From the NCBI RefSeq assembly GCF_963853765.1, contig NC_088856.1, positions 52,266,001 through 52,330,000 on the forward strand: a stretch of 64,000 nt of DNA, given 5' to 3'. This DNA is from Magallana gigas (taxonomy: Eukaryota). Of this stretch, positions 10,865 through 31,375 are shown in pieces. Position numbers and translations under genes: made by a program. Numbering within the stretch: the first letter of the stretch is position 1; every line of letters begins with the position of its first letter. The notes beneath the pieces were generated by a model. It made no database searches, was not told where the DNA came from, and was given only the letters and a program-made list of their open reading frames with translations.

Positions 10865-13800
10865 ATGGTCTGTCTAGAGAGAATGAAGAGGGACCTTGGG
10901 CAGGACTCCGCGACGCTGGACAAATTTGTAGAATTCCAGGTAACTGAGGGTGAAGAATCACTAGGGCAATTTCATATAATTAATTTGTTTTTATTAAAAA
11001 TACCGGATAAGAGTATCTCTTTTAAAAAATCTTTTGTTTTACAGTCTAATTCGGTTTGACAGACGTTGATTTTATACTTGTGAATATGTATGCTGCAAAA
11101 CTACTCCTTTAAAAACAAATCTATCATCTCGAACAAAACATTAGGTTAAATTAAAAACGAAAATGATTTATATTATGGAAGTCAATGTAAAACATATATC
11201 AAATAACTTATTTGTATTTGTATAATGGTTTGGGAAGATTAATGTTGTTGCATTTACATATTTTCTAACATATCATGGAAGAAACTCAATATCACTGTAG
11301 TGTATTTACAGTAACGCTTATCTTTACGTTTTCTCCAGTTTGAAAATATCATATGATTAGAAAGTAAAGATGATGGGTAGGGGGCCTTCTTCCTGTAATC
11401 AATTTGAATGATGCATTGTCAGACTAAAAACGAAAGGGTAAATAAATTAAATATCAGAATTTGTAATTTCAAAATGCGTTAAGTGTCTTGATAGTGAAAT
11501 ATGTTCATGCACCTTCATAATGCACTTTGTAAAGTAAAAATTTTAAAGTGCGTTGACCTGGACCCAAATGAACATTTTTCTCAAAGTGGGTTGATTTGGT
11601 CCCAAATCTAACGCAAAGTGCGTTATATATATATATATTATTAAGTTCTTTATTACAGTAATACATGTACATACAGACAAGGTATATAACAAAAGAGCCC
11701 TCAAGGAACTTTTGTTTAAATTTACACGTCAAAAACAAAAGGCCGAGTTTTGAATACGTTTCCCATAGCTTTGCGGTTAAATTTGAGCTTATAATTCGTT
11801 TTTGTGAAAAGAATAATTTTACAAAGTATATGAACATCAACGTTCTAGCATTTTCACAATCGATGGGTCTTTTATCTGAATAATCTATAACTCATTACTT
11901 GAATTAAAATATGGAAATATATACACCCCCAATGTAATAAAAGGATACCTGGAAATAAAATTAAGGTATGGATTATGCCTCGAGAGAAATTTGTCATCTA
12001 CGACCAATTCTTCTACACGTGTCGTCGGCATTCCGAGACATGTTCGTTGTACGGGATTTAAAAAAAGGTTTTTATACGTATTGCCAACACAACCCTTCAG
12101 TCACTATAGGTAAGAATATAAGTAACAGAATAAAGGACAAGGCGGGGCAATTTGTAATGAGTTTCAGTACACTCACTTTTCTAACTTATAATTTTTGACA
12201 ACGTGCTGCTACATACAAGTCTCGTCTCTCTGTCTTTATATGCACGTTAGCCTCCCTAATTGTCGTTAGATGATTTTCCCTGATAAAACAATGCCCGGCG
12301 CATTTGACCAACTAATTCTCAACGGAGACATTTATACACGTGCAAGCTGCCGAGCTGAGAAATCAATAAAAGAGAGATAGGCACAAGTTGATCAGCTTTT
12401 TTTCTCGTAGTCGCCTTAAGGTAAAGATTGAGTAGTTTCAAATGCACCATTGATGTACATTTACTTCAATAAGATACGACCCCCCTCCCCTCCAATGAAC
12501 TTCAAAAAATACACCGAAAGCAAGATTACGATGGTTAAAAGAACCTAAGGTACAATACAATACTTTACAATACCGTTGTTTGCAAAATTATCTGATCATT
12601 AACATTTATGATCCGTTGTAAAGGATTTCTTACTATACTCTGTCCCAAGATATTCTCGATTTACTTTTTGCTTTATAACTCGATATTTATTTATACCTCA
12701 AGGGTTCACGCGATGTTCATTACGATCCACTTCTTTACAACCGGTTGTAGTTTAGAGGAACGGATCATAAATCCTTGCCCAGCAAAGATGGCTATCAATG
12801 GAATGTCGTAATTGTCTTCAAGATTAATCAATGGTTATTAAATTAAAAAGTAAAAGTGTTGAAACAATTCTGAAAGGGTGCGTATAATGTATCGGGTATT
12901 TAAAACATTTTAGAACGCTAGGCATTCTGAGCGAGTAAGTGTAGATCATTTGTCAACATTGTGAAAATTTTAACTTTTGAAACGAATATATCTGCGAAAT
13001 ATGAAGGAAAATCTTTCTCAAATAAATCAATTTTTTAATAAAGAAAAATCCAAGCGTTTAAATAACGTGATACTCTTCACCTATTGTACTGTTTCAGTTC
13101 GGACAAACAAGGTACATGTACCCGCTGTGGTGCTCCCTATGGTTGCTGTTCCACCTGGCCTGGGTTATAGTGGAGATCTATTGGTGGGAGACCGTGGACT
13201 TCACCAGTGAGCTGTGGCCGGTTTATCTGACCAACTGGGGATATGCCGTCCTACTTCTGTACCTTGTGATGGATTTTTTAATTTCAGTCTACGTCAGGTT
13301 CATCATCAACACACGAGTTGGTTTGTATATATCATAGAGACATGGAGACGATTCAGTATTAAAGACATACGGATGATTCAATACATGTATAACAGACACA
13401 CAGACGATCAAAAGCTACTCATATACAGACAATCCAATATAACAGACATATCGACAATCCAATATTACAGACATACTAAGAATCCAAAATTACAGACATA
13501 CAGACGATCCAATCTAACCGACATACAGACTGTCCAATATAACAAACATATATAAAATACAACATAATAGACATACAGACATTTCATTAAAACAGACAAT
13601 TTAATATATCACACACATGCAGACGATCAAATATAACAGGCATATAGACAATCCAATATAACAGACATAAAGACGATCCAATATTTAAAACATGTAGACA
13701 ATTTAATATAACAGACATGTGGACTATCCAAATAAAAAGATATACAGACTATCTATTATAACAGGCATAAAGACAATACAATGTAACAGAGATACAGATT

Positions 13801-16486
13801 ATCCAATATAGCAGACATAAAGACGATACAATGTAACAGAGATGCAGATTATCCAATATAGCAGACATAAAGACTGTCCAATATAATAACAAACATATGG
13901 ATAATCCAATATAACAGACATACCGACTATCCAATATAACAGACATAAACACGATACAATGTAACAGTGATACAGATTATCCAATTTGACAGACATACAG
14001 TTATAACAGACAAACAGACGATCCAATATAAAATACATATAGACGAGCCAGTATAACAGACATGCAATCGATCTAACATTGCGAACATTATGAATCATGC
14101 AGACTCATGATTCTATAACTTTTTGACAAAGGGATTTTGTTATCCTAAAGCACCGTTTATACAAAAACTAAAACGTCACCAAGTTTTGCATATATCAATC
14201 GAAGTTGTTAATTCAGTTTCAGAGATTAACTGGTCCATGACTTGGTATAGTAAAACACAATGGGTATTACTAAACGTTAATAACGCTACGTCCGTCATCA
14301 TCACGCTGGCTTACTGGACTCTCATCGCTTCAAGTAAGTGTCCGTCTTTACTGGACTTTCATCGCTTCAAGTAAGTGTCCGTCTTTACTGGACTTTCATC
14401 GCTTCAAGTAAGTGTCCGTCTTTACTGGACTTTCATCGCTTCAAGTAAGTGTCCGTCTTTACTGGACTTTCATCGCTTCAAGTAAGTGTCTGTCTTTACT
14501 GGACTCCCATTGCTTTAAGTTAGTGTCCGTCCTTACTGACTCCCATTGCTTTAAGTAAGTGTCCGTCTTTACTGGACTCCCATCGCTTCAAGTAAGTGCC
14601 AATCCCTACTGACCTTCATCATTTCAAGTAGGTGCACATCCTTAATTCTCAACGCTTTAAGTAAATGTTTATCCTTATTGACCCTCGTCGCTTCAAGTAT
14701 ATGTTCATCCTTATTGACTCTCGTCGTTCAAGTAGGTGTCTATCATTACTGAACTCACATCCATTCAAGTAAGTGTGCATCTTTACAAACTCTCATCGCT
14801 TATTGTAAGTTCCTATCCTTTCTGATTTTATGGCTTCTTTAAAGTATCCATCTTACTGAACCCTCATCACTTCAAGTACGTGTCTATGATTACTAATCTA
14901 TAATTGCTTCAACAAGTGTCCATCCTTACTGACTTTCATCGCTTCGAGTAAGTGTCTATTTTGTCCGATCTCTCATTGCTTCAAGTAACCGTCCATTATT
15001 ACTTAACTTTAACTAATTCGAGTAAGTGTCTATTTTTTCTCCACTTTTATCGTTTTAAGTAACTGTCCATCCTTACTAATAATCTTTCATCACTTCTAGT
15101 AAGTGTTCATTTTTTCTGAAGTTTCGTCGCTTTAAGTAACTGTCCATCCTTAGTGAGCTCCCATAGCTTTCAGTGTCTTTTTTCGGATATCTCATCGCTT
15201 TAAATAACAGTCTATCCTTACGGATCTATCATTGCACCAAATAAGTGTCTATTCTTACTGATCTATCATCTTTTTAAGTGTATATTTTTACTGATCTTTC
15301 ATCGCTTCTTCTAAGTGTCTATCGTTACTGACATCCATCGCTTCAAGTAAGTGTCCATCCTTACTGGACTCTCATCGCTTTAGATGTGTGTTCATTTTTT
15401 TTACCCTCATTGCTTTATTGTAAGTCTTCACCGTTATCAGAACCTCTTCGCAAAAAAAACTCTAATTGCAGAAAGAAAGATTTTACCCCTTAATAGAAAT
15501 TCATTGGTTTCAAATAATTTGGTTTTCTTTTTTTCTTTTTTTTTGTTCAAGGTCAAATTTAATGTTTATTGCATTTATCTTCATCCATGCTTGCCTCTAA
15601 TTACGCTTAAAACACCCATATTTCAAGTAAGTTTTTTTATTTTTTCAGAGAACCTCTGCTAAAAGGTGTTTCTTTTTGTTATTTTTTTTAAAAAACCTTC
15701 TATCTTCTAGTATTTCGTATCATTTTTTTTAAATACAGTTTTTTTTTACGATTATAATTTTAAACCCTCGTCAGTCATTGCTTTAAGTACAAGCAAGTAT
15801 ATATAACTGCACAATAATCAATACAAATAAATATAAGTTCTTACTGACACCTCGTCGCATTAAAGATTTATTTAAAGTTACTTAGTTCTTTGGAATATCG
15901 TTTCAAATACTTTTACAAAATGCAATGAATACAACATAATCCTATCCATAAAAGAAGTAACTATCTTTTTGTTTACAGAATACTAATTCCATCAAGAAAC
16001 ATCTTAATTCCAGATTTTTTTTCTTTGCATTTTCTTGATGATACACAAATGAATGACTTTATTTATGACAGATTTCTCAAATGTTGATTCAGCCTGGAAG
16101 TATTTTTCTTTTTAGATACACATGCAACGAGCATAAACAAACATGGTTTAAATTCTGTTTACGCCATCATCAACATTTTTATAACGGCCAAACCTATTAA
16201 CATCACGCACATGTGGCATCCCGTACTCTTTTCGCTGATTTATGTGGTATTTTCTGTGATATATCAGCTCGGGTTCGGTGTTCCACCAATATACACCGTG
16301 CTGGACTGGTCTAAACCAACCACAGCCCTGCTAACATCGGTGCCTTTGGTTTTCATTGGAGTCCCGTTGTGTCACGTGATGTTCTTTATTCTGTATAGAA
16401 CGCGCTGTGTAATATTTAGGAAATGCTGTCTGAAGAAGGATAAGGCAGAAACAAGTACCCGTCACTCAGACCTACAGGATGAATAG
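10865..16486 (+). CDS. Protein rolling stone-like / FAR-17a-AIG1 family multi-pass membrane protein, 4 exons
   Basis: Exons 10865-10939 (ends FVEFQ|GT), 13098-13320, 14217 or 14223-14333, 16116-16486; phases 0,1,1 are compatible. Motifs YLTNWG, YWTL, HGLNSV and IYTVLDW, plus several hydrophobic helices. Exon 1 is the least certain. Confidence 0.82.
13335..14065. repeat. Degenerate ~25 bp minisatellite (atccaatataacagacatacagacg) in intron 2
   Basis: Repeated acagacat and atccaatata cores fill most of the intron. Confidence 0.85.
14311..15381 (+). repeat. 37 bp minisatellite containing the exon 3 end and the GTAAGT splice donor
   Basis: Unit tactggact(c/t)tcatcgcttcaagtaagtgtccgtctt. Donors recur at 14334, 14371, 14408, 14445 and 14482, then the array decays; roughly 29 units. 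Confidence 0.93.
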
Positions 16487-16595: not shown

Positions 16596-17460
16596 CAGAC
16601 AATGTCTGATTATCTAATTAATACAATTTATTTTACTGCAAAACAGATTATCACTGTTATATCTTTTTGGTCATATATATAATTTTTGTTATTGAGGGCG
16701 GGGGTAAACAAGGCTTTGTTTTAGCTTAAGTATTTCAATGTATAACGGCCGATATTTGTAACCATGATATCAATTTGAAGTTTTATCAAATAAAATTATT
16801 CCACCAAAGGAATTTTCAAAATGTTGATTATTGTCCGGTTAAATGCACCTTGAAATTTACTTTTAAGTGTACCATTAAAATAATGTAAAAAGTAACTTGA
16901 AATTTATACAAATCTCTTGCTGAATGTATATGCATAAACCTTCTCTTCGTTAAAATAAGTAATAAAATGAAACATTTACCGCAAATATTATGACAAAATT
17001 CAATTTTTCTTCCTTTCATCATGGGACATTACTCTTCAATATAGTTTTAAGATGCCAAATAACCGGACCCTTATATTTAGTCAGACATGTAAATTCGGTT
17101 CATTTCACTTTCCTTGTGATCTAGCTATACATATATAAGTAATCAAAAATAATTTAAAATTGTTCAATACCCCTTCATTATACATTGAATACCTTATTTT
17201 TTTTCCAAGCCCACAACCTTCCGTTAACTATTAATACATTCTTAGACTAATTCTATGCAGACGTAAGGAAAGTTCGTATTGAGTGTAATCTCCGAAAACA
17301 AAAGTGACATGGTTTTGTTAGATATGTACATTGAAGTAACAAAGATGAGCTGGCGTGAATAATCAACTTTAATGAGATCATTCTTATCTATATTTTGGAC
17401 GAAAACGTGGGCATTGCGAATAGATAACATTGTTGGGACCAAACGTTAAGGGCACTCAGT

Positions 17461-20400
17461 ATGAAAAGTCTGTTTCTTCTTTTATCCATTGTCTCAGCCT
17501 CAATATCCAAACCTGCTGACCTTGAATCGAGGCTGCAGGTTTTTGAGGTCACCTTGAAGAAACAGGAAATTGAAAACCGTGAATTAAAAGAAGAGGTGCG
17601 CTCATTGAAGACTGACAACCGGCAAATATTGATACAGCTGGCTCTGATGAGCGGAGCTACACGTGGGAACAGGCACGTGCTCTCACAGCGATTGCTTCAT
17701 CAAGGTAAAGGAAAATAAATAACATCTGCCAAATGATTCGATAACAATAGCGTAATCTTGAAAATGATATTTGGCGTATTTTTGTTCTATCGTTAATCTT
17801 TTCTCATTGTGCCGCCCGGACTTTATAATGATAAATATTTACATTTTTTATGTCTTATGTCAATACATTAGGAATCAAAGGATTAATGTTGGGTTTGTTT
17901 TAAAAGTTTATTTTCTCGCAAACATCGCATGTCTTAAAGTGCAGTCATCCTTTGCAACGTATAGTTCAATGCATTTCATCAATAACGTACCGTTGGAGAA
18001 CAAGCGGGTTGTGCTTTATTATGTGAAATGAAAATAATGTAAAAAATGTCAATGGTTAAATATCTAATCAACATTATATAAAAACACCTATTCTTTGAAC
18101 ATTATGATGACAGGTGATTATTATGATCGGGGTGTAATCATATTTAGCAAAAAACCTTAGAGCTTTATTGGATTTGATAATGCTCCAATCAAGTTCTCAA
18201 AAAATGATTCCTTATTTCTTAAATAAATTCATTAAACAAAATAGAGACCTGAATAAACAAGTTTATCATGTTAACAGGTATTCACTTTCTGAATTTATTT
18301 GAGAACATTTTCATATATTAATGATATAATACATTTTGCTGAAACGGTCAAATATTTTAATCTCAGAACTTAAAAAGAAACATAATTTACAATGGCAAAG
18401 CAAATGGAACTAATTAATAAGTCTGGAGTGAGCAAGATACAATATTTCTCGCTTATATAACTCCTGTCACTCCGGGACTGCCCGTTCTTAGGGCGATCTT
18501 GCTGCGTTCCTAAAAATGCAGAACGCCAAGGTGCACTTAGTAGAGTTTCCTACATTGGTGCAGCACCATAGCATCTTCATTGGTCGCGGCAGAGTCAAAA
18601 TGTACGCTATTCTACGACGCGTACTTTGAGCAAGCACAAAGTACGCTCCGCGGTTCGACGTTCTGATAAACACATAGTAGAAACGAAGCGGGATCGCCTT
18701 GGCAGCGCAGTAAGGTCCCCATGGTGGCCAGCAACGCCACCGTTAGCGCGCTTAAGTAATTCAGGTAGTTGCAGTATAGGTGCAGTGCATGATTTGTTGA
18801 CTGCGCTTGAACGGAGCCCTCTCGAAGTCCTTTGAAATATCACGACGTCAATATTTACATTCCACATATTTTTTGCTTATAAAGTGTTTTAAAAGCTACG
18901 GCAGTTTTGACACGTACTGTAATACACAGAGGGTACTTAATGGTTAAAATGACGACTTTTATTATGACGTCACAAACGTTGAACGCTTTAAACTGCAACG
19001 TCACAAGCGAAAATTAAAGTTCACGCTTGTGGCAGTTACAGTGGCTCTTCCATTAATATGAACTTACTCTCAGAATAAGATAGGAATTTTAAGGTATAAA
19101 CCCCCAAGAAGTTAAAAAAATGTAAATATTAGCATTAAATTTTAGCGTGCAACCCTATTGAATATAAAATATGAAAGCGGATAGGTACCCTCAGTTATCT
19201 TTCTGAGGACTAGTAGTTAAATATTCAGTATAAACATATACTGATTATAAAAACAAATCGACTGCCTGTCGTAGAATCAAGTATGTACAGGTATATATGC
19301 GCTGGCTCTAATATACAGGTTAGGCTCTTATGGCTCCGGCTCTTATAGCTCGGCTCTTATGGCCCCGGCTCTTTCAGCGCGGCTCCGGCTCTTCGTGGCT
19401 CCTGCTCTTCGTAGCTCCGGCTCTTACAGCAAGGTAATTATTGTTTATAAATTAAATAGAAAAAAAATATATACACAAAGTCAGGAAAGACTTGTTCAGT
19501 CACGTCTAGACTTCGTATATAATAAAAAAAAAACCCAAACAAAACACAATTGTAATTCTAAAGACAGTTACCTAATTATTTTCCAACCTTCCTGTAGCGC
19601 AGCTTTAGCATCGACTGACTTAACGCGCGAAACACTTCCTTATATAACCTTTTCAAACAACGCCACCTGGCGGACAAAAACTAACTAGAAAAACTGTTAG
19701 AGGCAGAACGACAATTTCCGGATTGTCACAATACCCACGCCTCAAAACCATGCGACCCCGCATGTAAGTAATAATAAAAAAAATACCCAAACATTTCTCT
19801 AATATCTTTAATAGTTTCATTAACGATAACTTTAACTATTGATTCAGGAGAGCTTCTTGCTTCCTGTACAACAATGTTTTAACAATTGTTTGTTCACTCT
19901 GGGCAGAAGTTTTCTCTTTGAATTACTCTTCTTCGATCATGACAATGTGCTCGGTCTCCTTCCTTCCACTTGGTGATTGTCCACTCAACTCTTCGTACTT
20001 TCTTCTCTATCTGCGTTGCCGAAGTACTAAATAAACTCGAAGGTCTGCAAATCTTTGGGCGTGCAGGAACCCCAGAAGAAGATACAAATGGTTCTTTACG
20101 CTTTGGAGCGAAAATTGGTAATGGCACAGTAGGTTTTCTATAGATCCTTCCAATATGTACTTCTTTCTGATCTTTCTCTTTGTGCTGCACTTCTTTCTCG
20201 CTTTCTGTCTCGGAGACATCACAAACAATGTTGTGAAGATTGCCAGGGTCTGCTTCTTTCCATTCACTGTCCGATCTTCTTCATCCACATCTGTTTCTTT
20301 TCTTTTCTCTTCATCTACAACCAGCACGCTTTTTGTCGTCTGATCCTGCTTATCTGTAGTGGTAGTGGATATTGCTTTCGGGGAAACTTGCTGGTCCAGC

Positions 20401-23400
20401 TCAGCATGCCTTTTCTTATGTCTCGTAAGGTTCCCCATCTTGTTCGTGGCAAATTCACAATCTTGTCGATCACAACCATATCTCTTATTAAGCTGCTTTA
20501 ACCCACATTCTGTAATGTGCTTTGTGATTTCATCCATATCAAAACTCTTAAACTTGCACATAGGACATTTCCGCTCCTTTCTGGGAGTTGTCTTCTTTTG
20601 TGGCATTTGTCTTTCTGGAAAGACATAAAAAAAATCGTCAAATATCAGTTTTCTCAAAGATGTATTTAAACGTGCAAAATCATACTAACTAAACATATCT
20701 TTCTGGGAGTTGTCTTCATTTGTGGCATTGTCTTTCTGGAAAGACATATTAAAAAAAATCGTCAAATATCAGTTTTCTCAAAGATGTATTTAAACGTGCA
20801 AAATCATACTAACTAAACATATCATTTTGGGAGTTAGACATTTTTTTCTACAATTCAACTACATAATCAGACAGATACTTGGGTCTTCGACGCTCCCTTA
20901 ACCTATCTGACAATCTCTCACAGTCTTCACTTTTGAGCTCATCGAGCTCTGCAGTATCAATTTTATCATCAGCTGTTAAAGGATTGGAAGACTTAGAGCT
21001 CGTCTCCTCATCCTGATAGGACTGGGCTCTTTTTGGCCTCATTCGGTCAACGTGAATGGCTTGCGGTTTTCTGTATGGACCACAGTTTACCCTATAGCTT
21101 ACATCGGATAACTTATCTTTCACGCGATATGGCCCTTTCCAAAATTGAGTCAATTTTGGAGATTTTCCGACTGCATATCTAGGGAAGTATACATACATTT
21201 CATGTCCTGGTGAAAACGTATTCCAACTTAACTTTGTATCATGGAAACTTTTCTGTCTCAACATGGAGCCAAATGAATTTTCTCTCACAAAGGTATGTGT
21301 CATTTCCATCTTCTCTTTTAGATCCCAAACCCATTGTTGTAATGTGATATCTTTGATCTGGGACGCCATTTCAAATGCAATATCTAGAGGTGTCCGAACC
21401 TCTCTTCCCAACATAAGATAATTGGGGCTAAATCCAGTGGATTCCTGTTCCACCGATCTATATGCCATAAAGACATATGGTAGTAACTCATCCCAGTCTG
21501 ACTGATGTTCATCAACCAATGACCTCAGCATGGTAATCAACGTTTTGTTAAACCTTTCAACAAGTCCGTCACATTGAGGGTGATATGGACTTGTTCTTGT
21601 CTTCTTGATATTCAACACTTTGCACATCTCTGTGAATATGTTTCCCTCAAATTGTTTTCCCTGATCTGCATGCAAAGAGCTCGGAATTCCAAATCTTGTC
21701 AGAACTTCTCGAACTAATAGTCTAGCAATGGTAACAGTCTCCATATTTGGCACAGCAAAGGCTTCTACCCACTTTGTAAAATAGTCACAAATTACCAGTA
21801 TGTACCGGTTACCATTCTCGGTTCTTGGTAATTCTCCCACTATGTCCAAAGCAATTGTGTTATGTTTTATGTTCATGAGAGTATTCCAGAATCTGACGTC
21901 GTGCTTTAAATGGAACGACTGCTTGGAAACTTGTTCCCTTCTCATCTTTCCATTTTCTATACAGTAATTCATCTTGAACCTGTAGAATATCTCTTTGTGC
22001 CCAAAGAGCTTTTGTCATTATCCCTCCATAACTTAGTTCTGTTTGACTGGGTTTTATATTTTCAAGGAGCCATTTTTTTACAAGACATATCTCCTTGTCT
22101 TCTTTTTGAAGATCTGCAAGGGAAATGTCATCGATTCCTGTTTCGTTGTGAACGTTATCTGTTTCCTTACTTCTAGTCTCAATACCACATACTTGATGTG
22201 TTGTTTTCTTTTCTGAAAAGGATTTCTTTGACTTCTCCATCTCCCAGTTTGGATTATACTTGCATTTATTACATGGACGGCGACTGAGTGCATCCGCATT
22301 TCGATGCTGAGAGCCAGAACGACGTTCTATAGTCATATCATACATGATTAGAATTTCCAGCCAACGTGCCAACTGACCTTCTGGTTGCTTAAAGTTTAGG
22401 AGCCATCTAAGCGAACCATGATCTGTACGAATGAGAAATTTTCTTCCATACAGATAATGTCTAAAATACTTGACAAAGGAAACAACTGCTAATAATTCCT
22501 TCTTTGTCACACAGTACTTCCGCTCCGATTTGGATAAAGTTCAGCTCGCAAATGCAATAACTTTCTCAGCTCCTCCTTGATTTTGTGAAAGCACAGCACC
22601 TATGGCTGAATCACTCGCATCTGTATCCAGAATGAAAGGTTCATTAAAATCTGGAAATGTAAGTATTGGAGCACGTGTCAATGCCAATTTTAACTTGTCA
22701 AATGCCACTTGGCATTCATCCGTCCATTTGAACTTGACATCTTTGTTTGTCAATTTATGTAGAGGTTTTGCTATTAAACCAAAATCCTTTACAAATCTCC
22801 GGTAATAACTACATAACCCTAGGAAAGCTCTAACCTCTTTGACTGTAGTTGGCTCAATCCATTCCTTAATTGTGTCTAGTTCTTAGGATCAGTTGCAACT
22901 CCTGACTGTGAAATGACATGACCTAAATAATCCACTTTATGTCCATACAAAGTACATTTCTTTGGCTTTAACTTTAGACCAGCTGAAAACAACCGATTAA
23001 AAACTTTCTGCAGATTTTCGGTCATTTCATCGAAAGTTTTACTGAACACAATTATATCATCTAGATATATCAGGCATGTTTCCCATTGGAGACCACACAA
23101 AACTGTCTTCATCAAGCGTTCGAAGGTCGCAGGAGCGTTACAAAGCCCGAATGGCATGACCTTGAACTGATAGAGTCCTTTCATTGTGATAAATGCCGTT
23201 TTAGGTCTATCTTTGGGATCAACTACAACCCGCCAGTATCCAGAGGAAAGATCTAATATTGAGAACCAACGAGCACCTGAAAGATGATCCAAGGTCTCGT
23301 TGATTCTTGGTAATGGATATGCATCCTTGATCGTGGCATCGTTGAGTCTCCTGTAATCAACGCAGAAACGAAAGCTTCCGTCTTTCTTACGAACAAGAAT

Positions 23401-26400
23401 CACACCGGAGGCCCAAGGGCTTGATGACTTTTCTATCACATCTTCCTATAGCATATCGTCTATTTGTTGATCTATGTGATCTTTCCAATGCACTGGGGTT
23501 CTTCTTAATGACTGGCGTATAGGTATCCGAGAACCTGTGTTAATAGAATGTTTCACAATATCTGTCCTACCAAAATCCTTGTCGTCTTTTGAGAATAACC
23601 CAGAATTGCGTAACAGCAGAGATTTTAACGCTTCTCTCTGTTTCACTTTTAGTGTACTGCTAGACCTATTAAACAAATCTTGCAGAGCTGGATTAAGTTG
23701 TTTTGCTTTCACCTTACTGATGTCTGTAGGTCCTTCTATCACGTCATCTACTGGAGAAAGATTTGCAACAACAGTGTCACTGTGTATAACTTGTACCTGC
23801 GAACTTAAATTCATGAGCCTCACAGGTACAACTTCATTATTAGAAACAAGAATTTTCCCTATTAGTCCCTTTTCTGACTTTAAGAACTCATCATCACCTT
23901 CAATTATGCTTGCACCTTCTGGCAATCTTTCTTTGTCTGGTATACAAACATTGCAGTTTGTGACAATTTCTGACCTTGGTGGTATGTGAATGGTGTCTGC
24001 CATGCTAACTCGAAAACATCCTATGTGGCCCTTCCGTATCATAGAAATAGAGTTATCCCTTATCTTCAGGATATGTTTCGGCACATCTACAACACCATCA
24101 AATTTGAGCAAAAAGTCCAAACCCAAGATAGCATCCAAAGATATGTCTGCAACAGCAACAGTTGAACCGTATATCAGCTTATCAATGGTTATTGGCAAAT
24201 CCAGCTTTCCATAGACCTTAAGCGGCTCGCTGTTGGCTGATAGCACAGGGTGTCCTACTTTTTCCAAGGAATTCAAAGTAGCAGTTTTACTAGATATTTT
24301 ATCAAATATTTCTTTTCTCAGCACCGATAGAGTGGCTCCCGTATCAACTATCATACATATACCCAGACCACAGATAGATGCCTCGATAAACATCCCAGCA
24401 TCTCCTACAACTCCTACTTTGTTGGAAGAGTTTGATGGATTTACCTTCTGTGTTCGGTCTTGCTTTTCGTTAGAAAACACTCTTCGAGACGAGTTTTCAT
24501 TTTTCTTTGAGCGGCACTCTTCCTTAATGTGACCTTTATTTCCACAGTTATGACATATGGCAGATTTTTTCCAATCCACATTTGAAAATCTCTTCTCCGA
24601 TTTTCCCTTTAGCTCCTTCAACTCCTTCATAATAATCTCCATTGATTTCTGAAGATCTAATTTTGATGCATTTACATCATTCAGCTCTGATGTAACTTTT
24701 ACGTCTGGAGAATTTTCTTGTCCCATTGCTCTTACTGAAGGAGTTACTGCTCCTAGTCTCTGCTCAGCCTTAAGGAATGCTTCTAGCTCAATGGCATTTC
24801 TAACTGCTTCGTTAAGGTTTCTCGGCCTTGCCTGCTTAATCCTTAAACGCATGTCTGATAGGGCAATTTTGCACATGCTTCGAAATGTGACTTGTAATCA
24901 AGCCATGATGTTGTTCCGTCGTATGTCGCAGGTTTGATATTTGGAGCATTTTTCCGGCTCGCCGATGGATTAACAGAGCTCGTGCCCTGTATATCAGGAA
25001 GACGTGGCTCTCTTCTGGTCGGAGAACGTGTTTTTCTTCTAAATGTTATATTTTCCACTGGTCCCCGGGGTGTATCTATTGGCATCTGCTTATCATCTCT
25101 GTGTAGATAGGGGCTCAGATCATAGTCATCCCTTGCAAAAGCGTTGACTGTTTTGGACCCTAATGTGACTGATTTCTTTATATTCCCACCATTTATACCA
25201 GCTCCATCATCTTCCAAGAACTGGGCAGTAGCAATACCTAAATCAGGAGTATTTTGGCTATGGGGTCTGCTAGTTCCAGCAGGGGTAGAATGGGCGCGTT
25301 CTTCAATTTCATACGCAGCGATTTGCTGTTCCAGCTCTCTGATTGTTGCGTTTATGTCCTCCAAATCCATGCTCAATCAATCAAGCAATGACAGTTAAAC
25401 ACAATTGAAACTACTAGTGATTATCCCACCGCGTGCAACCCTATTGAATATAAAATATGAAAGCGGATAAGTACCCTCAGTTATCTTTCTGAGGACTAGT
25501 AGTTAAATATTCAATATATACATATACTGATTATAAAAACAAATCGACTGCCTGTCGTAGAATCAAGTATGTACAGGTATATATGCGCTGGCTCTAATAT
25601 ACAGGTTAGGCCCTTATGGCTCCGGCTCTTATAGCACGGCTCTTATGTGTCCGGCTCTTTCAGCGCGGCTCCGGCTCTTCGTGGCTCCTGCTCTTCGTAG
25701 CTCCGGCTCTTAGAGCACGGTAATTATTGTTTATAAATTAAATAGAAAAAAATATATACACAAAGTCAGGAAAGACTTGTTCAGTCACGTCTAGACTTCG
25801 TATATAATAAAAAAACCCAAACAAAACACTATTGTAATTCTAAAGACAGTTACCTAATTATTTTCCAACCTTCCTGTAGCGCAGCTTTAGCATCGACTGA
25901 CTTAACACGCGAAACACTTCCTTATATAACCTTTTCAAACAACGCCACCTGGCGGACAAAAACTAACTAGAAAAACTGTTAGAGGCAGAACGACAATTTC
26001 CGGATTGTCACAAAATCATGATTTTTTGAAAGATACAGTCTCATAATTGCAGCCATGTGTAGATACAAATTTTCATAACGCTCTGACCTCAATTTATATG
26101 CACACACCCCTGCAGTTATGAGACTGTATCTTTTAAAACATCATGATTCAATGTTATAGTATTGTGCACGCAGACAGTGCATGGAGCAAGCATTGAACGC
26201 GAGGTAAAATTCTTAGCAGGTCATTAGCACTCGGTGTGAGCGCTGTCAAACGCCATGCGATTAGAACTCCATAGGCACGCAGATAAGCGCCGAAGAAGCG
26301 CCATGAAAACGTTTCAGTCGCCGTCTTTTCCTTGTAAAAAATTTATTTCAAAATGTTCAAATTTTTAAAAATTTCCTGCGATTTCACGGCGATTCAAGAA

Positions 26401-27808
26401 ATTTTACAACTTCGTAATAACTCGATGAGAACGCAACTTGGTGTGACAGTCCTTTTCTTATATTTGGCGTGCACCAGATTCAATATTTTTTGTCGATTTT
26501 AAATATCTAATGTATAATTTATCAACTAATTGTTTTTAATTCAAGAAAATGAAATTGGGTAGCAATTACAAACTCCGTAAAGGGAAAAGAAAAAAATCAC
26601 AAAACGCTGATTGCACAGAAGATGATTATAGTAGTTAATAACTCAAGTGATGTCAAAATAATCAAAGTACTGAAGTACTAAGGGAAATTGAATTTATCGA
26701 TTATCATTTATTTTAAAATCAACTTATCTTGCATGGCAATTAGTTTCTAGTCTGTATTTGAATTACGCACTTTTTTATTATATGAATTTTTAGACTTTTC
26801 CGACAAAAATTTCAAGAAACCCCATATGAATCATGTTGTGTAATATCTAAAGATAGATTTCAAACTATGTATTAGTAATCGAACAATTCTTAAAATCGTA
26901 TGGATCCAAGCACTAGTGATATCGAACTCTGGTCTCGTTCAACCAGACGCTCGGCTGTCTCCGTTAATATCCAACAAGCAAGAAAGCCCCTCTGCTTGTC
27001 GGAGATTTACGGAGACAGCCGAGCGTCTTGTTGAACGAGACTTTATTACGCTCTGGCGTAGGAACATTTGAGACTACAAAAATATCTAAATTGTTCGTAT
27101 TATATAAAATCTGACTATTCTAAAAGTGTTTATAGATAAGTTTCCTTGAAAAACAATGCTTCAGCATACGTTACATCGAGTTTTTCTATTATTTTCAAGA
27201 ACTAAGTCTTGTCAGCGGCGATGATTTGTGCTTAGGTCCAAACACTGTTTCACTTTCGGTTTGCCATAGTAACTGCATAGGAGAGTTGATTAAAATCAAC
27301 TCCCAAAAATCAGTACTTTTTTTTCTTAACAAATTGCTTTTGAAAGAAATCAAATGAGAAATGCTGCACTAACACGGCTACAATTTTCTACTACTTCACA
27401 GATTCGCCTATTGATGGGATCGGTTTCTATGCCTACATGTCTAAGGATGAGCCTGACCCCCGGGGTCATCACACCCTGATCTATGACGTAACGCAGACAA
27501 ACCTTGGGAATGGCTACAATAGAAATACAGGTGTTTTTACTGCTCCTCGGGACGGGCTTTACTCTTTCACGTGGTCTACACGAGTAGCATGCTCACACGC
27601 TCACACGACAGATCTCATCATCAATGAGAGGATCATGGGAAGCACGTATGCATATTGTGGCTATAACACCGTGACTGGTCACGTGGTAGCAATAGTCAAT
27701 CAAGGTGACGTCATATTCGTCCGAACACATTCCACGTCTCCAGGACAAGGCGCTATTAAAAGTAACGAATTCGGTCGATCGGCTTTCTCCGGATTTCTAA
27801 TACAATAA
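17461..27808 (+). CDS. C1q domain-containing protein 1 (signal peptide, coiled coil, gC1q)
   Basis: Exon 17461-17704 (hydrophobic N-terminus, heptad-like ESRLQVFEVTLKKQEIENRELKEEV, phase-1 donor) and exon 27402-27808 (FYAYM...TNLGNGYNRNTGVFTAPRDGLYSFTW...FSGFLI). The phases match across a 9.7 kb intron that holds the Gypsy element. Confidence 0.85.
19148..19730 (-). repeat. 3' LTR
   Basis: Direct repeat of 25434-26012 with about a dozen substitutions and three homopolymer indels by manual alignment. Contains internal ggctctt tandem units. Confidence 0.95.
19894..20606 (-). pseudogene. Extra ORF3 of the Gypsy element: tandem zinc-finger protein, frameshifted
   Basis: ATG at 20606. CPMC-x12-H-x3-C and CDRQDC-x12-H-x3-H fingers. 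A frameshift near 20270 continues into SDSEWKEADPGNL...RIYRKPTVPLPIFAPKRK...VEWTITKWKEGD. Confidence 0.72.
20578..20823. repeat. ~122 bp tandem duplication covering the ORF3 acceptor and start
   Basis: The block ttctgggagttgtcttc...ctaaacatatc occurs twice back to back. Confidence 0.88.
20848..24400 (-). pseudogene. pol: Gypsy pol: aspartic protease, RT, RNase H, integrase
   Basis: IVDTGAT and ILGLDFL (PR); WASGVILVRKKDGSFRFCVDYR and YLDDII (RT); ILDTDAS and TKKELLAVV (RNase H); ALDIVG, HADQG and GLVERFN (IN DDE core). In-frame stops at 23446-48 and 22541-43, a frameshift at ~22878, and a deletion at ~21870. Confidence 0.95.
24400..25376 (-). pseudogene. gag: Gypsy gag with internal deletion
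   Basis: KPATYDGTTSWLDYKSHFEACAK jumps out of frame to SDMRLRIKQARPRNLNEAVRNAIELEAF. The zinc knuckle CHNCGNKGHIKEEC is in frame with the protease. Confidence 0.88.
25434..26012 (-). repeat. 5' LTR
   Basis: Direct repeat of 19148-19730; followed on the minus strand by cgcggtgggataa and the gag ORF. Confidence 0.95.
26014..26148. repeat. 135 bp inverted repeat (mini-foldback) abutting the 5' LTR
   Basis: Arms 26014-26052 and 26110-26148 (aatcatgatt...agatacagtctcataa.tgcag and its reverse complement). Confidence 0.85.
26932..27041. mobile_element. 110 bp palindromic MITE
   Basis: 49 bp arms gtctcgttcaac.agacgctcggctgtctccgt... with a 12 nt loop. Confidence 0.8.
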
Positions 27809-29789
27809 TTGCTACACTTTATAATTGCATTACTTTATAATTGTAAGATAAAGTATTTCCACAAAAAAAGAATAATAATTGTTCAATTTGTTTATATGTT
27901 TGAGTATTTACCTTTTTGTTTCCTGTTTTTGTTTACTGTTCTTGAAAAACCGTTTTCTTTTTGTTTATACATGTATGTAACCATTTGACGTTGACAAAAT
28001 GATTGAAATAATTCTCTCAAAATAGATCCCAAATATTATGCTCACTTGATAAAATATTCTTTTAAAATTCCACAACGTTTTTTATTTTAAAATATAATAC
28101 AGTATGTTCTTTTATCTGAAACATGTCTGTATAGAAAGAAATTTATGAGGTATGGTAATAGGATTGACCTTTGAAGGCTTCTTAACATCTCTTTTATATT
28201 TGTTTGAAAGAGGGGCATTATACGATCAATACGTACAATAATGTAAAATTCATAATTAAAATAAACCCATTGTTTCTATGTGGTCCCACTACCATTGTTA
28301 TTATGGCATTGGGTCAATATAGCAGAATGGTATTTCAGAGCTAATTTGAGATTCATCTTCAGCATTAAGTTGGGGTTTTAAGAGTAAAATATTTTATTTT
28401 AAAAGTTGGCATTTTTCAAAATAAAGAAGATAATTTGCATAGAAATGCATAATTTCACAGTGGTTTATGGCAACAAAATACACATTTCAAACATAATTAT
28501 TTCTATTGTACTTGAAATTAAAATTACACTCAATTTTTTTCACACACGTTAAGAACTAAGCAATGTAGAATTTTAAGATCAAAAATTGAGAACAGTTGAT
28601 ATGGAAACAGTTCATTTTCTTTGAATGAGCCTTATTGATATATTGAATAGGGTCTATAAATTGTTCATGTTTAAGTACTTAGGTAAACCAGGTATGTCCT
28701 GAACTTTCATGCAGTTAAAAAACCCTGTCGTTTCTTTGGAGTTTTAAAAGGTACATGTAAGAAGTGTTTTACTTAGATGCAGAACTTAAGATCCACTCGA
28801 GATTGACGGACCGTGGAGCTACAGTTGCATCCGTACAAAAAACTGTATATTTATTGCGCAAAAAAAGTTGTGCGTGGTTTTAGACTTCCTAACCTCATTT
28901 AGGAATAAATTCTGTGAAAATTTTAGTGCCAACAATTTTTCAGATATTTACTTGAGATGTAATTCCTTTTTCCTGCCTCTGACTATCATTTAAACACCCT
29001 CACCAGTCCCATAATGTGAAACAATTTTATTTGTTTACAGGTAGAAATGGCGGCTCTTGATTCCGACATAGATTTATTATACTCCACTTTCAGAGGTCAG
29101 TTCGGGTGTTTGAGGCAAGTAAACTGGTGAACCAGTAATATAATGTCTCAGAAATGTTTTGGTATTGAAAACTTCACAGAATATATTCCTTAATAAGTTT
29201 AATAAAATAAACATTTTAATTATAATGCAAGTATATTTAACGCAAGAAATATACACCGTACAGTTTTTGGAATAGAGGTAACAGTTACTGTTGCTCAGCT
29301 TTGTTTTGGTATGCTACTTAATTTTCCATAGCAACAACCCTTTTTTGTTGTATGTATAACAATCATGATTCTTTTATATTATAAAAATGTGGGCAAATTT
29401 TCACAAATATAAGAAAAAAAAATAATAAAAAAAAAATCTTAAACCTTCTGCTTTGGTTACCATGGCAACGAGTACCCACAACAACCAATTTTAGGATGTT
29501 TAGCTTTTTACAATTTGGAGTTTTCATGTATTGAATATAAAGTAAGACTCGGGGTAATTTCCCCTGTGCGAAGGCTTATTAGGAATTACTAGCTACATAG
29601 TTGTTTATCGACTTATTGTATTCTGATATATAATGCTTACTTTTAGATACAGGAATGTCGAGGAGACAACTCAAAAAGCGTAACTTTGGTTTATGATATC
29701 TTGTCAGAGTGGGTTAAAAGCATCAGATGTATATTAAAATTTCGTGTTAAACGACGGAGAGGTCAAATGGAAACCAAATATCCTTTTGT

Positions 29790-31375
29790 TTGAACTAGAT
29801 AGATTGCACGATCAATATGTACTGGTCCCTGTTGATAAGGCAATTATAAACATTGTCTTTGTTTGTAAGTCACATTATATTAATTGCATTTTCAAAGAAC
29901 TAGCTTTTGATTTTACACATGGTAATCCTACTTACACCCATAGCAGTCTTTCCAAGCAGGAAATACTTCAAAATCATAAATCGGTTATGAATAGCTTTAA
30001 TATCCCCAATAAACAAAATGAATTTGATTTACCTTATTTGTACTGGATTCCAAAGCTTCACAAAAGTCCTTACAAACAGAGATATATAGCAGGTTCCAGT
30101 AAAGGTTCTACCAAACCTCTCTTTTTACTCCTTATTAAAATTCTTACAGTAGTGAAGGAGAATCTTCAAGAGTACTGTACAACAAAATACTCCAGAAGTG
30201 GTGTGAATCAGATGTTGATACTAAAAAACGAATAAATAGAAACGTTGAGGTCACATAATCTAACCAAAACCAATAGCATCAAAACTTACGATTTTTCAAT
30301 GCTTTATACAACAATTTACAACGACAAATTAAATCTAGGCTTTTTGATATCATCGACAGTTGTTTCTATAATAAAAATGGAAGTCGTAAAAATGCTTACC
30401 TTGTCATTGGAAATCTAACAAAATATTTTGTTAAAAACCATTCAGATTGCACACACAAGTACTCTGAAGTTGACATTAATAAGATGCTTGAGTTTCTGAT
30501 AGACAACATCTATGTAGTTTTTGGAAATTCAAGTCTTCCAAAAATATGTTGGAATTCCCATGGGTACCAATTGTGCCCCATTGTTAGCAGACCTATTTTT
30601 GTATTCTTATGAAGCAGAATTTATTCAAATACTTGTACGTGAATAAAATAAATCACTTGCTGTGGCCTTCAACTCAACATTCAGGTATATTGACGACGTA
30701 TTATCAATTAACAATTGTTATTTCCATAATTACGTCGACTTGATATATTCCAGTGAACTTGAAATAAAAGACACCACTGAATCTGCGTCATCTGTTTCAT
30801 ATTTGGATATTTGACTGGAAATGAACACATTGATGGTTACCTAACAACAAATCTTTATGATAAACGCGATTACTTCAATTTTTCTATAGTCAACTTTCCT
30901 TACTAATGTAGCAATATACATTCATTACCTGCATATGCAGTTGATTCGATGCGCAAGGGCATGCTCTTCGTATGAACAGTTTCTAAGACGAAACAACTAC
31001 TGACAAACAAGTTGATGAAACAGGAATATCAACAGTCTCGTTTGAAGTCATCTTTTTGTAAGTGTTATGGTCGATAAAACGACCTTTTCAGCAAATACAT
31101 TCTTCCACTGGGTCACATGCTGACTGACATTTTTCACACTAATTGTTAGACCATAATTAATCACCTAATTTTCTACGGACTTTTCCGTTTTTCCCCGATT
31201 GCGACATAGAGCACACGGCAGATGTTACCGGTCATCAGAGGATGCTCACTCCTTTATGGCACCTGATCCTACCTCTATCTTTTTAGAGGTCCGTGTTGCT
31301 CTGCTTTGAATTTGTATTTCGTTTTATGGATTTTTGAGATGGTTGACAGTTTGTTATTGTATTTTTTCATCAATT
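29790..31375 (+). mobile_element. 5'-truncated, decayed Penelope-like retroelement (RT region and 3' end)
   Basis: VLVPVDKA, YWIPKLHKSPYKQRYIA, IKTYDFS, GIPMGTNCAPLLADLFLYSYE, FRYIDD and SYLD motifs across several frames, with stops and frameshifts. No GIY-YIG domain seen. Confidence 0.85.

Follow-up and report, generated by a model that had tools for sequence, protein, structure and literature searches.

The DNA analysed here (the window) is a 64,000-nucleotide stretch of the Magallana gigas genome, positions 52,266,001 to 52,330,000 of contig NC_088856.1. Its minus strand carries, at 19141-26012, a Gypsy retrotransposon with a 4-bp target duplication, and between the integrase and the 3′ long terminal repeat (LTR) of this element, in the sense orientation, lies a third open reading frame (ORF3) with two zinc fingers. 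An earlier note on the same DNA, made from the sequence alone, had proposed that ORF3 is a spliced accessory gene rather than env, and most of that description stands. On the reading that we favour, and to which we give about an even chance, ORF3 serves an oyster Gypsy clade as a conserved accessory gene with its own splice acceptor, and its product of ~210-290 aa, which starts like the histone H3 tail, acts in trans as a chromatin decoy dimerised by LC8. Its features in the window are as follows, all on the minus strand.

20615-20636, minus: pyrimidine tract and ORF3 splice acceptor, AG at 20616-20615; RNA use seen on sibling copy L011, strict acceptor in 17/19 families
19923-20606, minus: ORF3, ~230 codons, with breaks near 20274 and 19953 in the window copy
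20577-20606, minus: histone H3-like N-terminus (equivalents of K4, T6, R8 and K9), from sequence comparison
20505-20567, minus: finger 1, CX2CX12HX3C; acidic residues where base contacts usually fall
20406-20474, minus: finger 2, C2H2; K at -1 and R/K at +6 in most family members
20236-20271, minus: acidic W-x(1-4)-D-P-G motif, in 44/48 proteins
20122-20151, minus: GR-x-x-RK-x-T-x-P motif, core matched in 45/48 proteins
20005-20028, minus: LC8-type TQT motif; degenerate in the window copy, TQT in open siblings
19923-19998, minus: predicted C-terminal beta-hairpin; low, inconsistent model confidence

The C2HC finger (CPMC-x12-H-x3-C), the C2H2 finger and the acidic linker are all present in the sequence as first described, as are the stretches WKEADPG, RIYRKPT and WTITKWKEGD in a second frame, and the acceptor AG does lie 8 nt before the ATG at 20606. 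That spacing is unique to the window copy, being 7 nt in the open siblings. The end first given for the frame, 19894, has to be corrected, since it comes from the shifted frame that follows the second break near 19953; the homologous stop is at 19925-19923. The view that ORF3 is not env is borne out by all 34 proteins scored, which lack a hydrophobic segment (0/34 reach a 19-residue Kyte-Doolittle mean of at least 1.6, the highest being 0.92), and Pfam gave no env family.

Distribution, selection and splicing of ORF3

Protein searches of the Magallana gigas genome with the two halves of ORF3 returned 47 and 25 matches. Integrase lies directly upstream in 41 of the 43 own-genome loci examined, and 26 of the 43 hold an open frame of 211-248 aa that begins at the start Met and reaches the C-terminal hairpin region; within the window family itself, 2 of the 4 other near-full copies are open. 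A second route, starting from integrase, gave 150 genome matches, of which 60 were taken, picked for long open frames and spread. In a quick-type tree without bootstrap, built from 50 of 65 loci (the 15 with no long open frame being excluded), 31 rows form a clade with a Shimodaira-Hasegawa-like approximate likelihood ratio (SH-aLRT) support of 99; 22 of them bear ORF3 and 9 do not. The mapping of ORF3 onto a phylogeny that had been suggested thus yields a well-supported ORF3 clade, but one with both young and old losses. Later counts rest on nineteen ORF3 families, and the 10 family representatives compared are 28-34% identical to the ORF3 protein of the window family.

Named relatives come from Crassostrea, Saccostrea, Ostrea, Pinctada, Pecten, Mizuhopecten and Argopecten (oysters, a pearl oyster and scallops). 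A RefSeq protein with 93% identity points to a Crassostrea oyster as the probable host. Databases name several of the relatives REST-like host factors and assign two to symbiont metagenome-assembled genomes, the latter two being taken for host DNA; zinc-finger genes that bivalve annotations list in many copies as “REST-like” or “uncharacterized” are probably retrotransposon ORFs. Outside Magallana gigas, genomic context comes from protein P0242 and the gene models P0008 and P0326, where pol stands in the same protein or model. The search of representatives was dominated by multi-finger proteins, and the rows counted are single-stretch, full-length ones. Two metagenome scans held no ORF3 locus, and the 5 matches to longer homologues among 5434 candidates were all multi-finger host proteins, none of them fused to pol, which is weak evidence.

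As far as codon comparisons can tell, ORF3 is under purifying selection. In 9/9 between-family pairs the proportion of synonymous differences (pS, 0.78-0.91) far exceeds that of nonsynonymous ones (pN, 0.27-0.39), a result far from neutral for a check that the earlier note had asked for; the synonymous sites are near saturation and no omega can therefore be given, and the protein-guided codon alignments can depress pN. Constraint falls from the integrase core through the ORF3 fingers to the rest of ORF3. In comparisons within families, 11 of 12 groups have a pN/pS below 1, mostly from few changes. Young copies in three families (L016/L017, L081/L082/L091 and L092) have lost the gene by deletion. 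In one family outside the clade (L115:1841-3601 (-), L131, L144, L147) the finger module runs in frame with integrase in 3 copies; this family lacks the acceptor AG and the LTR donor described below, has the best match to H3 (7-8/9) and carries three QT/QC motifs. P0242 is a second pol fusion. ORF3 is a separate gene in 19 of 20 families and fused to the integrase C-terminus in 1, so that fusion of the chromovirus type is not a clade-wide trait.

Three side observations concern third ORFs and their copies. Two ORF3-bearing copies that lie 6945 nt apart (L046/L047, L104) look like a tandem with a common LTR. In neighbouring Gypsy clades (L114, L116-L130) there are non-homologous third ORFs of 112-462 aa, mostly with Cys/His finger patterns; none starts like H3, and TQT-like motifs occur in L119, L122 and L124. 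The third ORF at L130:1344-2576 (-) has its fingers N-terminal and a BTB/POZ domain C-terminal (BTB_2, E 2.2e-18).

A strict splice acceptor no more than 20 nt from the ATG is found in 17 of the 19 families, as against 96/1958 pol ATGs and 140/2850 positions in 3′ untranslated regions (a background of ~5%). This stricter rule replaced a first, loose one, which was dropped for its background of 33-36%. The ATG has a purine at -3 in 17/19 families, and the AG-to-ATG spacing across families covers all three phases. In raw RNA reads placed on sibling L011, a GT..AG joint into the ORF3 acceptor is carried by 5 reads with 5 starts in run X21 and by 1 in X24, with 3 loose ends and 2 short-overhang reads as further support; the joint thus occurs in 2 of 4 raw runs, from two studies. 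The RNA came from animals other than the genome source, and the reads are not assignable to the window copy. Spliced and unspliced reads coexist, the unspliced depth at the acceptor being 9 in X21. No genomic copy without the intron between the integrase donor and ORF3 was found among 24 matches. RNA contigs of 4 runs held no splice joint; one contig begins 2 nt before the exon, a start equally explained by a known single-nucleotide polymorphism. Four X21 reads jump back from 7121 to 6788 on L011 (L011:6788-7121) with ends that are not splice-type, probably from a tandem duplication in one copy.

The expectation that ORF3 is expressed by splicing therefore holds for the named acceptor, which reads of two studies use; the only donor seen in a junction lies within integrase and not near the 5′ LTR. 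The join is in frame and identical to that in RefSeq model P0004. Models P0008 and P0326 join the end of integrase to ORF3, and the Ostrea edulis gene model P0234 has ~60 residues resembling the gag N-terminus joined to it, a third possible donor. The integrase donor is not conserved outside the window family, and in-frame donors in the integrase tail (27/67) are near the one third expected, with no common position; a clade-wide in-frame integrase splice was rejected on these grounds, the donor being unconserved and its phase at chance. By contrast, a predicted LTR donor at 55 to 125 nt past the TATA box is present in 16/19 families where 2.0 are expected, an approximate figure for the donor matrix used. 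It is kept in 3/3 copies with recent ORF3 loss, and found in 0/4 copies (2 families) of the old-loss lineage, in 0/1 fused and in 1/10 outgroup elements. A simple pattern for the TATA box did not work in some LTRs; the counts rest on repeated calls, with L113 left unscored. From its conservation we infer that this LTR donor feeds the ORF3 acceptor.

The proposal that ORF3 is an accessory gene of a Gypsy lineage has thus fared well: the gene is clade-wide and conserved, it is open in siblings and in many families rather than a one-off capture, its substitution pattern is not neutral, and spliced reads use its acceptor.

The ORF3 protein and what it might do

AlphaFold gives a confident two-finger unit at residues 11-70 (predicted local distance difference test, pLDDT, 94-96), followed by a long low-confidence stretch and an uncertain C-terminal hairpin. 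The family zf-C2H2 is matched in 19/22 ORF3 proteins at E<=0.05, with profile matches to CTCF and other fingers. Finger 2 has residues typical of DNA-binding fingers, with K at -1 (36 proteins), R/K at +6 (47) and N/Y/D at 3; finger 1 is acidic at the base-contact positions, and 4-11 residues link the two. Downstream, the acidic W-DPG motif and the RK-x-T-x-P core are kept in nearly all proteins (44/48 and 45/48). With the C-terminal part modelled only together with the rest of the protein, Foldseek found no match at E<=0.001 in PDB and viral models; the best VIA score was Z 4.8, for the fingers alone, and the ESM Atlas returned unnamed or generic finger clusters (recognition 2161, below the mark of 2300), with ZNF512 at 0.92 as a lead only.

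The N-terminus is the most telling part of the protein. Compared with H3 read from the same genome, 48 proteins match at T3 in 39, K4 in 43, T6 in 45, R8 in 26 and K9 in 33, and their mean identity to H3 residues 1-9, a positional match at the protein end, is 4.17/9 as against 1.27 for column permutations (reached in 3/20000). The ORF3 N-terminal profile scores the H3 tail at a level met by 4 of 252,532 9-mers when 128 long unrelated proteins are scanned, and by none of 127 N-termini of those proteins. Of 47 proteins examined, 44 contain K-x-T, and in 41 of these it stands at a fixed distance from the Met, but at a distance from the first Cys that varies from 6 to 15 residues. The residue after the Met is P, A or V in 45/48. 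Met and H3-like end are retained even in fusions, and L147, of the fused family, matches H3 at 8/9. An Arg2 following an N-terminal Pro, the mark of SNAG factors, is not the pattern here (R in 1/48, Pro1 in 20/48). We regard the N-terminus as an H3-tail look-alike and a putative mimic, with binding to H3 readers or writers predicted.

At the other end of the protein, [TVIC]QT occurs 15-75 aa from the C-terminus in 43/47 proteins, where shuffled sequences gave a mean of 2.0 and a maximum of 7. Its flanks (D/S/E at -4, E/D at +2) and the low pLDDT around it are those of an LC8 client, and the flanks agree with the description of LC8 ligands in PMC6607443. A complex model of ORF3 with host LC8 scored 0.75 as against 0.31 for the best of 3 controls, with 2/3 runs passing, on residues 191-200. 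Contact agreement between runs is at least 1% and the partner pLDDT at least 43; the mark was reached by 51/78 solved and 2/108 mismatched pairs (39/65 and 2/126 among eukaryotes). The pass may be a memory of solved LC8-TQT complexes. Together, the H3-like N-terminus and the LC8-type motif narrow the functions first listed for ORF3 (regulator, anti-silencing factor or targeting factor).

How the favoured decoy might work can be set out in steps. A short non-coding LTR exon would be spliced to the acceptor, and translation would start from ORF3's own Met. Aminopeptidases remove an initiator Met before Pro, Ala or Val, and this would leave a free H3-like end. Finger 2 would bind DNA, perhaps the element's own LTR, with finger 1 structural or protein-binding, and LC8 would bind the TQT motif and so pair two ORF3 chains. 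The H3-like tail would then occupy readers or writers of H3K4 and H3K9, and the decoy would protect the element's promoter from silencing. T3, K4, T6 and K9 kept without R2 would presumably suit readers of the ADD type, with DNMT3 or ATRX as candidates. A stand-alone ORF3 product appears to be selected, because the H3-like end is anchored to the Met, residue 2 is small, a purine is kept at -3 and the splice phase is free; action in trans fits the occurrence of young ORF3-less copies beside ORF3-bearing siblings. A more specific version, in which the bivalve Gypsy ORF3 is a true, dimeric H3-tail mimic, settling on the LTR of its own element to lure away readers or methyltransferases of H3K4 and H3K9, and able to be switched to integrase by splicing or fusion and so possibly to act at insertion too, is put forward tentatively, its chances being well short of even.

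Several points weigh against the decoy. Every junction seen used the integrase donor, and a joint from the LTR donor to the acceptor is in no read or contig of 8 runs (LTR depth ~1; ~1/100 of each raw run). A sub-lineage of 5 copies without ORF3 (SH-aLRT 99) has gag-pol open, and the two LTRs are 99.3-100% identical in the 4 of these copies that have both; since there are young copies that do without ORF3 and still keep gag-pol open, the gene is not required in cis. The likeness to H3 is patchy, with R2 in 1/48, A1 in 13/48 and S10 in 2/48, and the ORF3 sequences are mutually related, so that residue and motif counts are not independent. Moreover, the N-terminal stretch reads as T-P-x-K/R, the consensus of a cyclin-dependent kinase (CDK) site, in 23/47 proteins, and part of the H3 match may stem from another cause. 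Two fingers alone confer little DNA specificity. The effect could be activation or self-repression, a decoy against silencing being the simplest direction. Finally, many TQT peptides fail to bind LC8 (PMC6607443).

The junctions bear on a second explanation, which we consider unlikely: that ORF3 is an accessory or tethering module of integrase, appended to its C-terminus by splicing or stop loss in the way of the chromodomains of chromoviruses, and that it uses chromatin readers and LC8 to guide the integration complex or to shield it. In the reads and in P0004 an in-frame join does link the integrase core with ORF3, in P0008 and P0326 it is the end of integrase that is linked, and the fused family, which has lost acceptor AG and LTR donor, has made integrase and module a single frame in 3 copies, as P0242 has a second time. 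On the other hand, the splice would delete the SH3-like C-terminal domain of integrase, its donor is not conserved beyond the window family, and tail donors in frame are near chance. Met and H3-like end persist in the fusions as well, fusions are limited to 1/20 families, and the gene models may just extend frames upstream, P0234 being joined to gag instead.

Were the H3 likeness coincidental, ORF3 might be a plain LTR transactivator or repressor built of fingers, acidic W-DPG motif and LC8 dimer, with a nuclear localisation signal or CDK phospho-switch at its N-terminus. The T-P-x-K/R reading and the conserved acidic Trp motif suit such a protein, as does an architecture like that of ASCIZ/ATMIN as far as the accessible descriptions go, but families that lack the proline still have T3, K4 and T6, the motif keeps its distance from the Met and one family nearly copies H3; we hold this to be decidedly unlikely. 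A small probability is also left for a regulator like Rev or CERV, a nuclear protein, translated from the spliced RNA, that would bind unspliced genomic RNA and clear it for export. Both kinds of read, spliced and unspliced, occur at the acceptor, CERV offers a precedent (PMC10309623), and the ORF3-less lineage is also without the LTR donor, as expected if only intron-bearing genomes need the protein; that co-loss is equally expected from disuse. Such a regulator leaves the Met-anchored H3-like end unexplained, the residues of finger 2 are of the DNA-binding type, and CERV as described differs in its 517 aa, gag-shared exons, C4 loop and ring-forming domain. Neutral one-off capture of a host zinc-finger exon has next to no chance: the window copy is broken, ORF3 is repeatedly lost and some relatives are named host REST-like factors, but the idea is refuted by the occurrence of ORF3 in 19 families and in several bivalve genera, by purifying selection on it, by the conservation of its splice signals and by its almost constant association with integrase.

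The window element and its surroundings

The domains matched in Pfam follow the order CCHC knuckle, protease, reverse transcriptase (RT), RNase H and integrase, so that gag-PR-RT-RH-IN between LTRs places the element in Ty3/Gypsy (Metaviridae). TG..CA ends, a short target duplication and a primer-binding site, kept in siblings and gone from the window copy, agree with this, and 4-bp target duplications are shared by the window element, its siblings and most related families. The LTR pair is 97.3% identical (12 mismatches in 587 columns). Besides ORF3 the element comprises the following.

25431-26012, minus: 5′ LTR; 3′ end and primer-binding site missing in the window copy, judged against sibling L011
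25921-25928, minus: TATA-like box of the 5′ LTR, from sequence; same motif called across 19 families
25847-25856, minus: predicted 5′ splice donor, GT 25853-25852, 75 nt past the TATA box, from sequence; absent from reads
20848-25370, minus: gag-pol (CCHC knuckle, protease, RT, RNase H, integrase), interrupted by stops, shifts and deletions; a single 1669-aa frame in two siblings
21191-21199, minus: donor within integrase, GT 21196-21195; the sibling's equivalent site is joined in frame to the ORF3 acceptor in RNA reads
20626-20835, minus: acceptor region duplicated in tandem (124 nt); AG 20737-20736 and ATG 20728 in the upstream copy
19732-19743, minus: polypurine-tract-like site ahead of the 3′ LTR, from sequence
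19141-19730, minus: 3′ LTR; target duplication of 4 bp at 19137-19140 and 26013-26016

The window copy is thus defective: its gag-pol is interrupted by stops and shifts, parts of gag and integrase are deleted, the primer-binding site and LTR end are gone, the acceptor region is duplicated and ORF3 is broken twice. The units of the duplication are 20626-20711 and 20750-20835, and its second, upstream acceptor and ATG open merely a short peptide. An 11-codon upstream ORF (25893-25858 (-)) stops just ahead of the predicted LTR donor.

Adjoining the 5′ LTR is an inverted repeat with 58-nt arms (26014-26148), possibly a small DNA transposon struck by the element, with related sequence in L015. Two exons flank the element at 17428-17718 and 27344-27808 (+), one for a signal peptide and coiled coil, the other for C1q (E 7e-17); the element may thus be an antisense insertion within an intron of a C1q-domain gene. 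Farther out, at 13335-15453 and 29738-30612, are 25-nt and 37-nt tandem arrays and a broken RT-like frame resembling a non-LTR or Penelope-type fragment, for which Pfam gave no match in the part scanned.

Comparison with known systems

Literature searches, with the accessible text of two surveys of mollusc transposons, gave no description of ORF3 and no transposon-encoded H3 mimic; the search lay outside Repbase, most subscription journals and supplements, where the bare ORF may be recorded. ORF3 was not found in the accessible text of PMC6238403, PMC10294476, PMC10547256, PMC13524379, PMC12440569 or PMC9587614. If ORF3 is a true H3-tail mimic that docks on the element's LTR, it would be a sequence-targeted anti-silencer of an animal retrotransposon. 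The protein is small and its motifs can be tested, and a single genome provides a natural experiment, with ORF3 families, young ORF3-less derivatives, a lineage without ORF3 and donor, and an integrase-fused family. Unrelated finger ORFs fill the same post-integrase slot in neighbouring clades.

In its position between integrase and 3′ LTR, its sense strand and its own acceptor, ORF3 resembles errantivirus env and other third ORFs of Metaviridae (PMC12992720; bdelloid ORF3s, PMC5408684), and the upstream exons of errantivirus env vary too (PMC12992720). Unlike these, it has zinc fingers and short linear motifs, and no signal peptide, transmembrane segment or enzyme domain. CERV of the C. elegans element Cer1 (PMC10309623) is likewise a non-env accessory protein from a spliced mRNA, with a Cys-rich part and a predicted multimer; compared by description only, it is unlike ORF3 in its 517 aa, gag-shared exons, C4-type loop, G-like domain and role in RNA export. 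Chromovirus integrases (PMC12440569, PMC13524379) also have a chromatin-related module after integrase, as in the one fused oyster family, whereas ORF3 has no chromodomain and is a separate gene in 19/20 families.

For the N-terminus, the closest parallels are SNAG factors such as SNAIL (PMC13316430), which have an N-terminal H3 look-alike, often Pro1, and C2H2 fingers. SNAG needs Arg2, which ORF3 keeps in 1/48, holding instead to T3, K4, T6, R8 and K9. Influenza NS1 (PMC12937675) is an H3-tail mimic too, but a C-terminal one, and neither SNAIL nor NS1 is encoded by a transposon. For the TQT motif and the disordered C-terminal region, the LC8 clients ASCIZ/ATMIN and Panoramix (PMC7861614) are alike, ASCIZ being a transcription factor with many LC8 sites and Panoramix dimerising via LC8 for transposon silencing. 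They are host proteins, whereas ORF3 is a transposon protein with one to three motifs. VANC of the Arabidopsis VANDAL elements (PMC6719617) is likewise an accessory protein of a transposon, with a proposed action in trans on members of its family, but belongs to a plant DNA transposon, and no histone mimic is mentioned in the accessible part of that 2019 review, which counted only three transposon-encoded anti-silencing systems, those described being from plants. Non-env third ORFs, histone mimics in viruses and host SNAG factors, plant anti-silencers and the part of LC8 in PIWI-interacting RNA silencing are thus already known.

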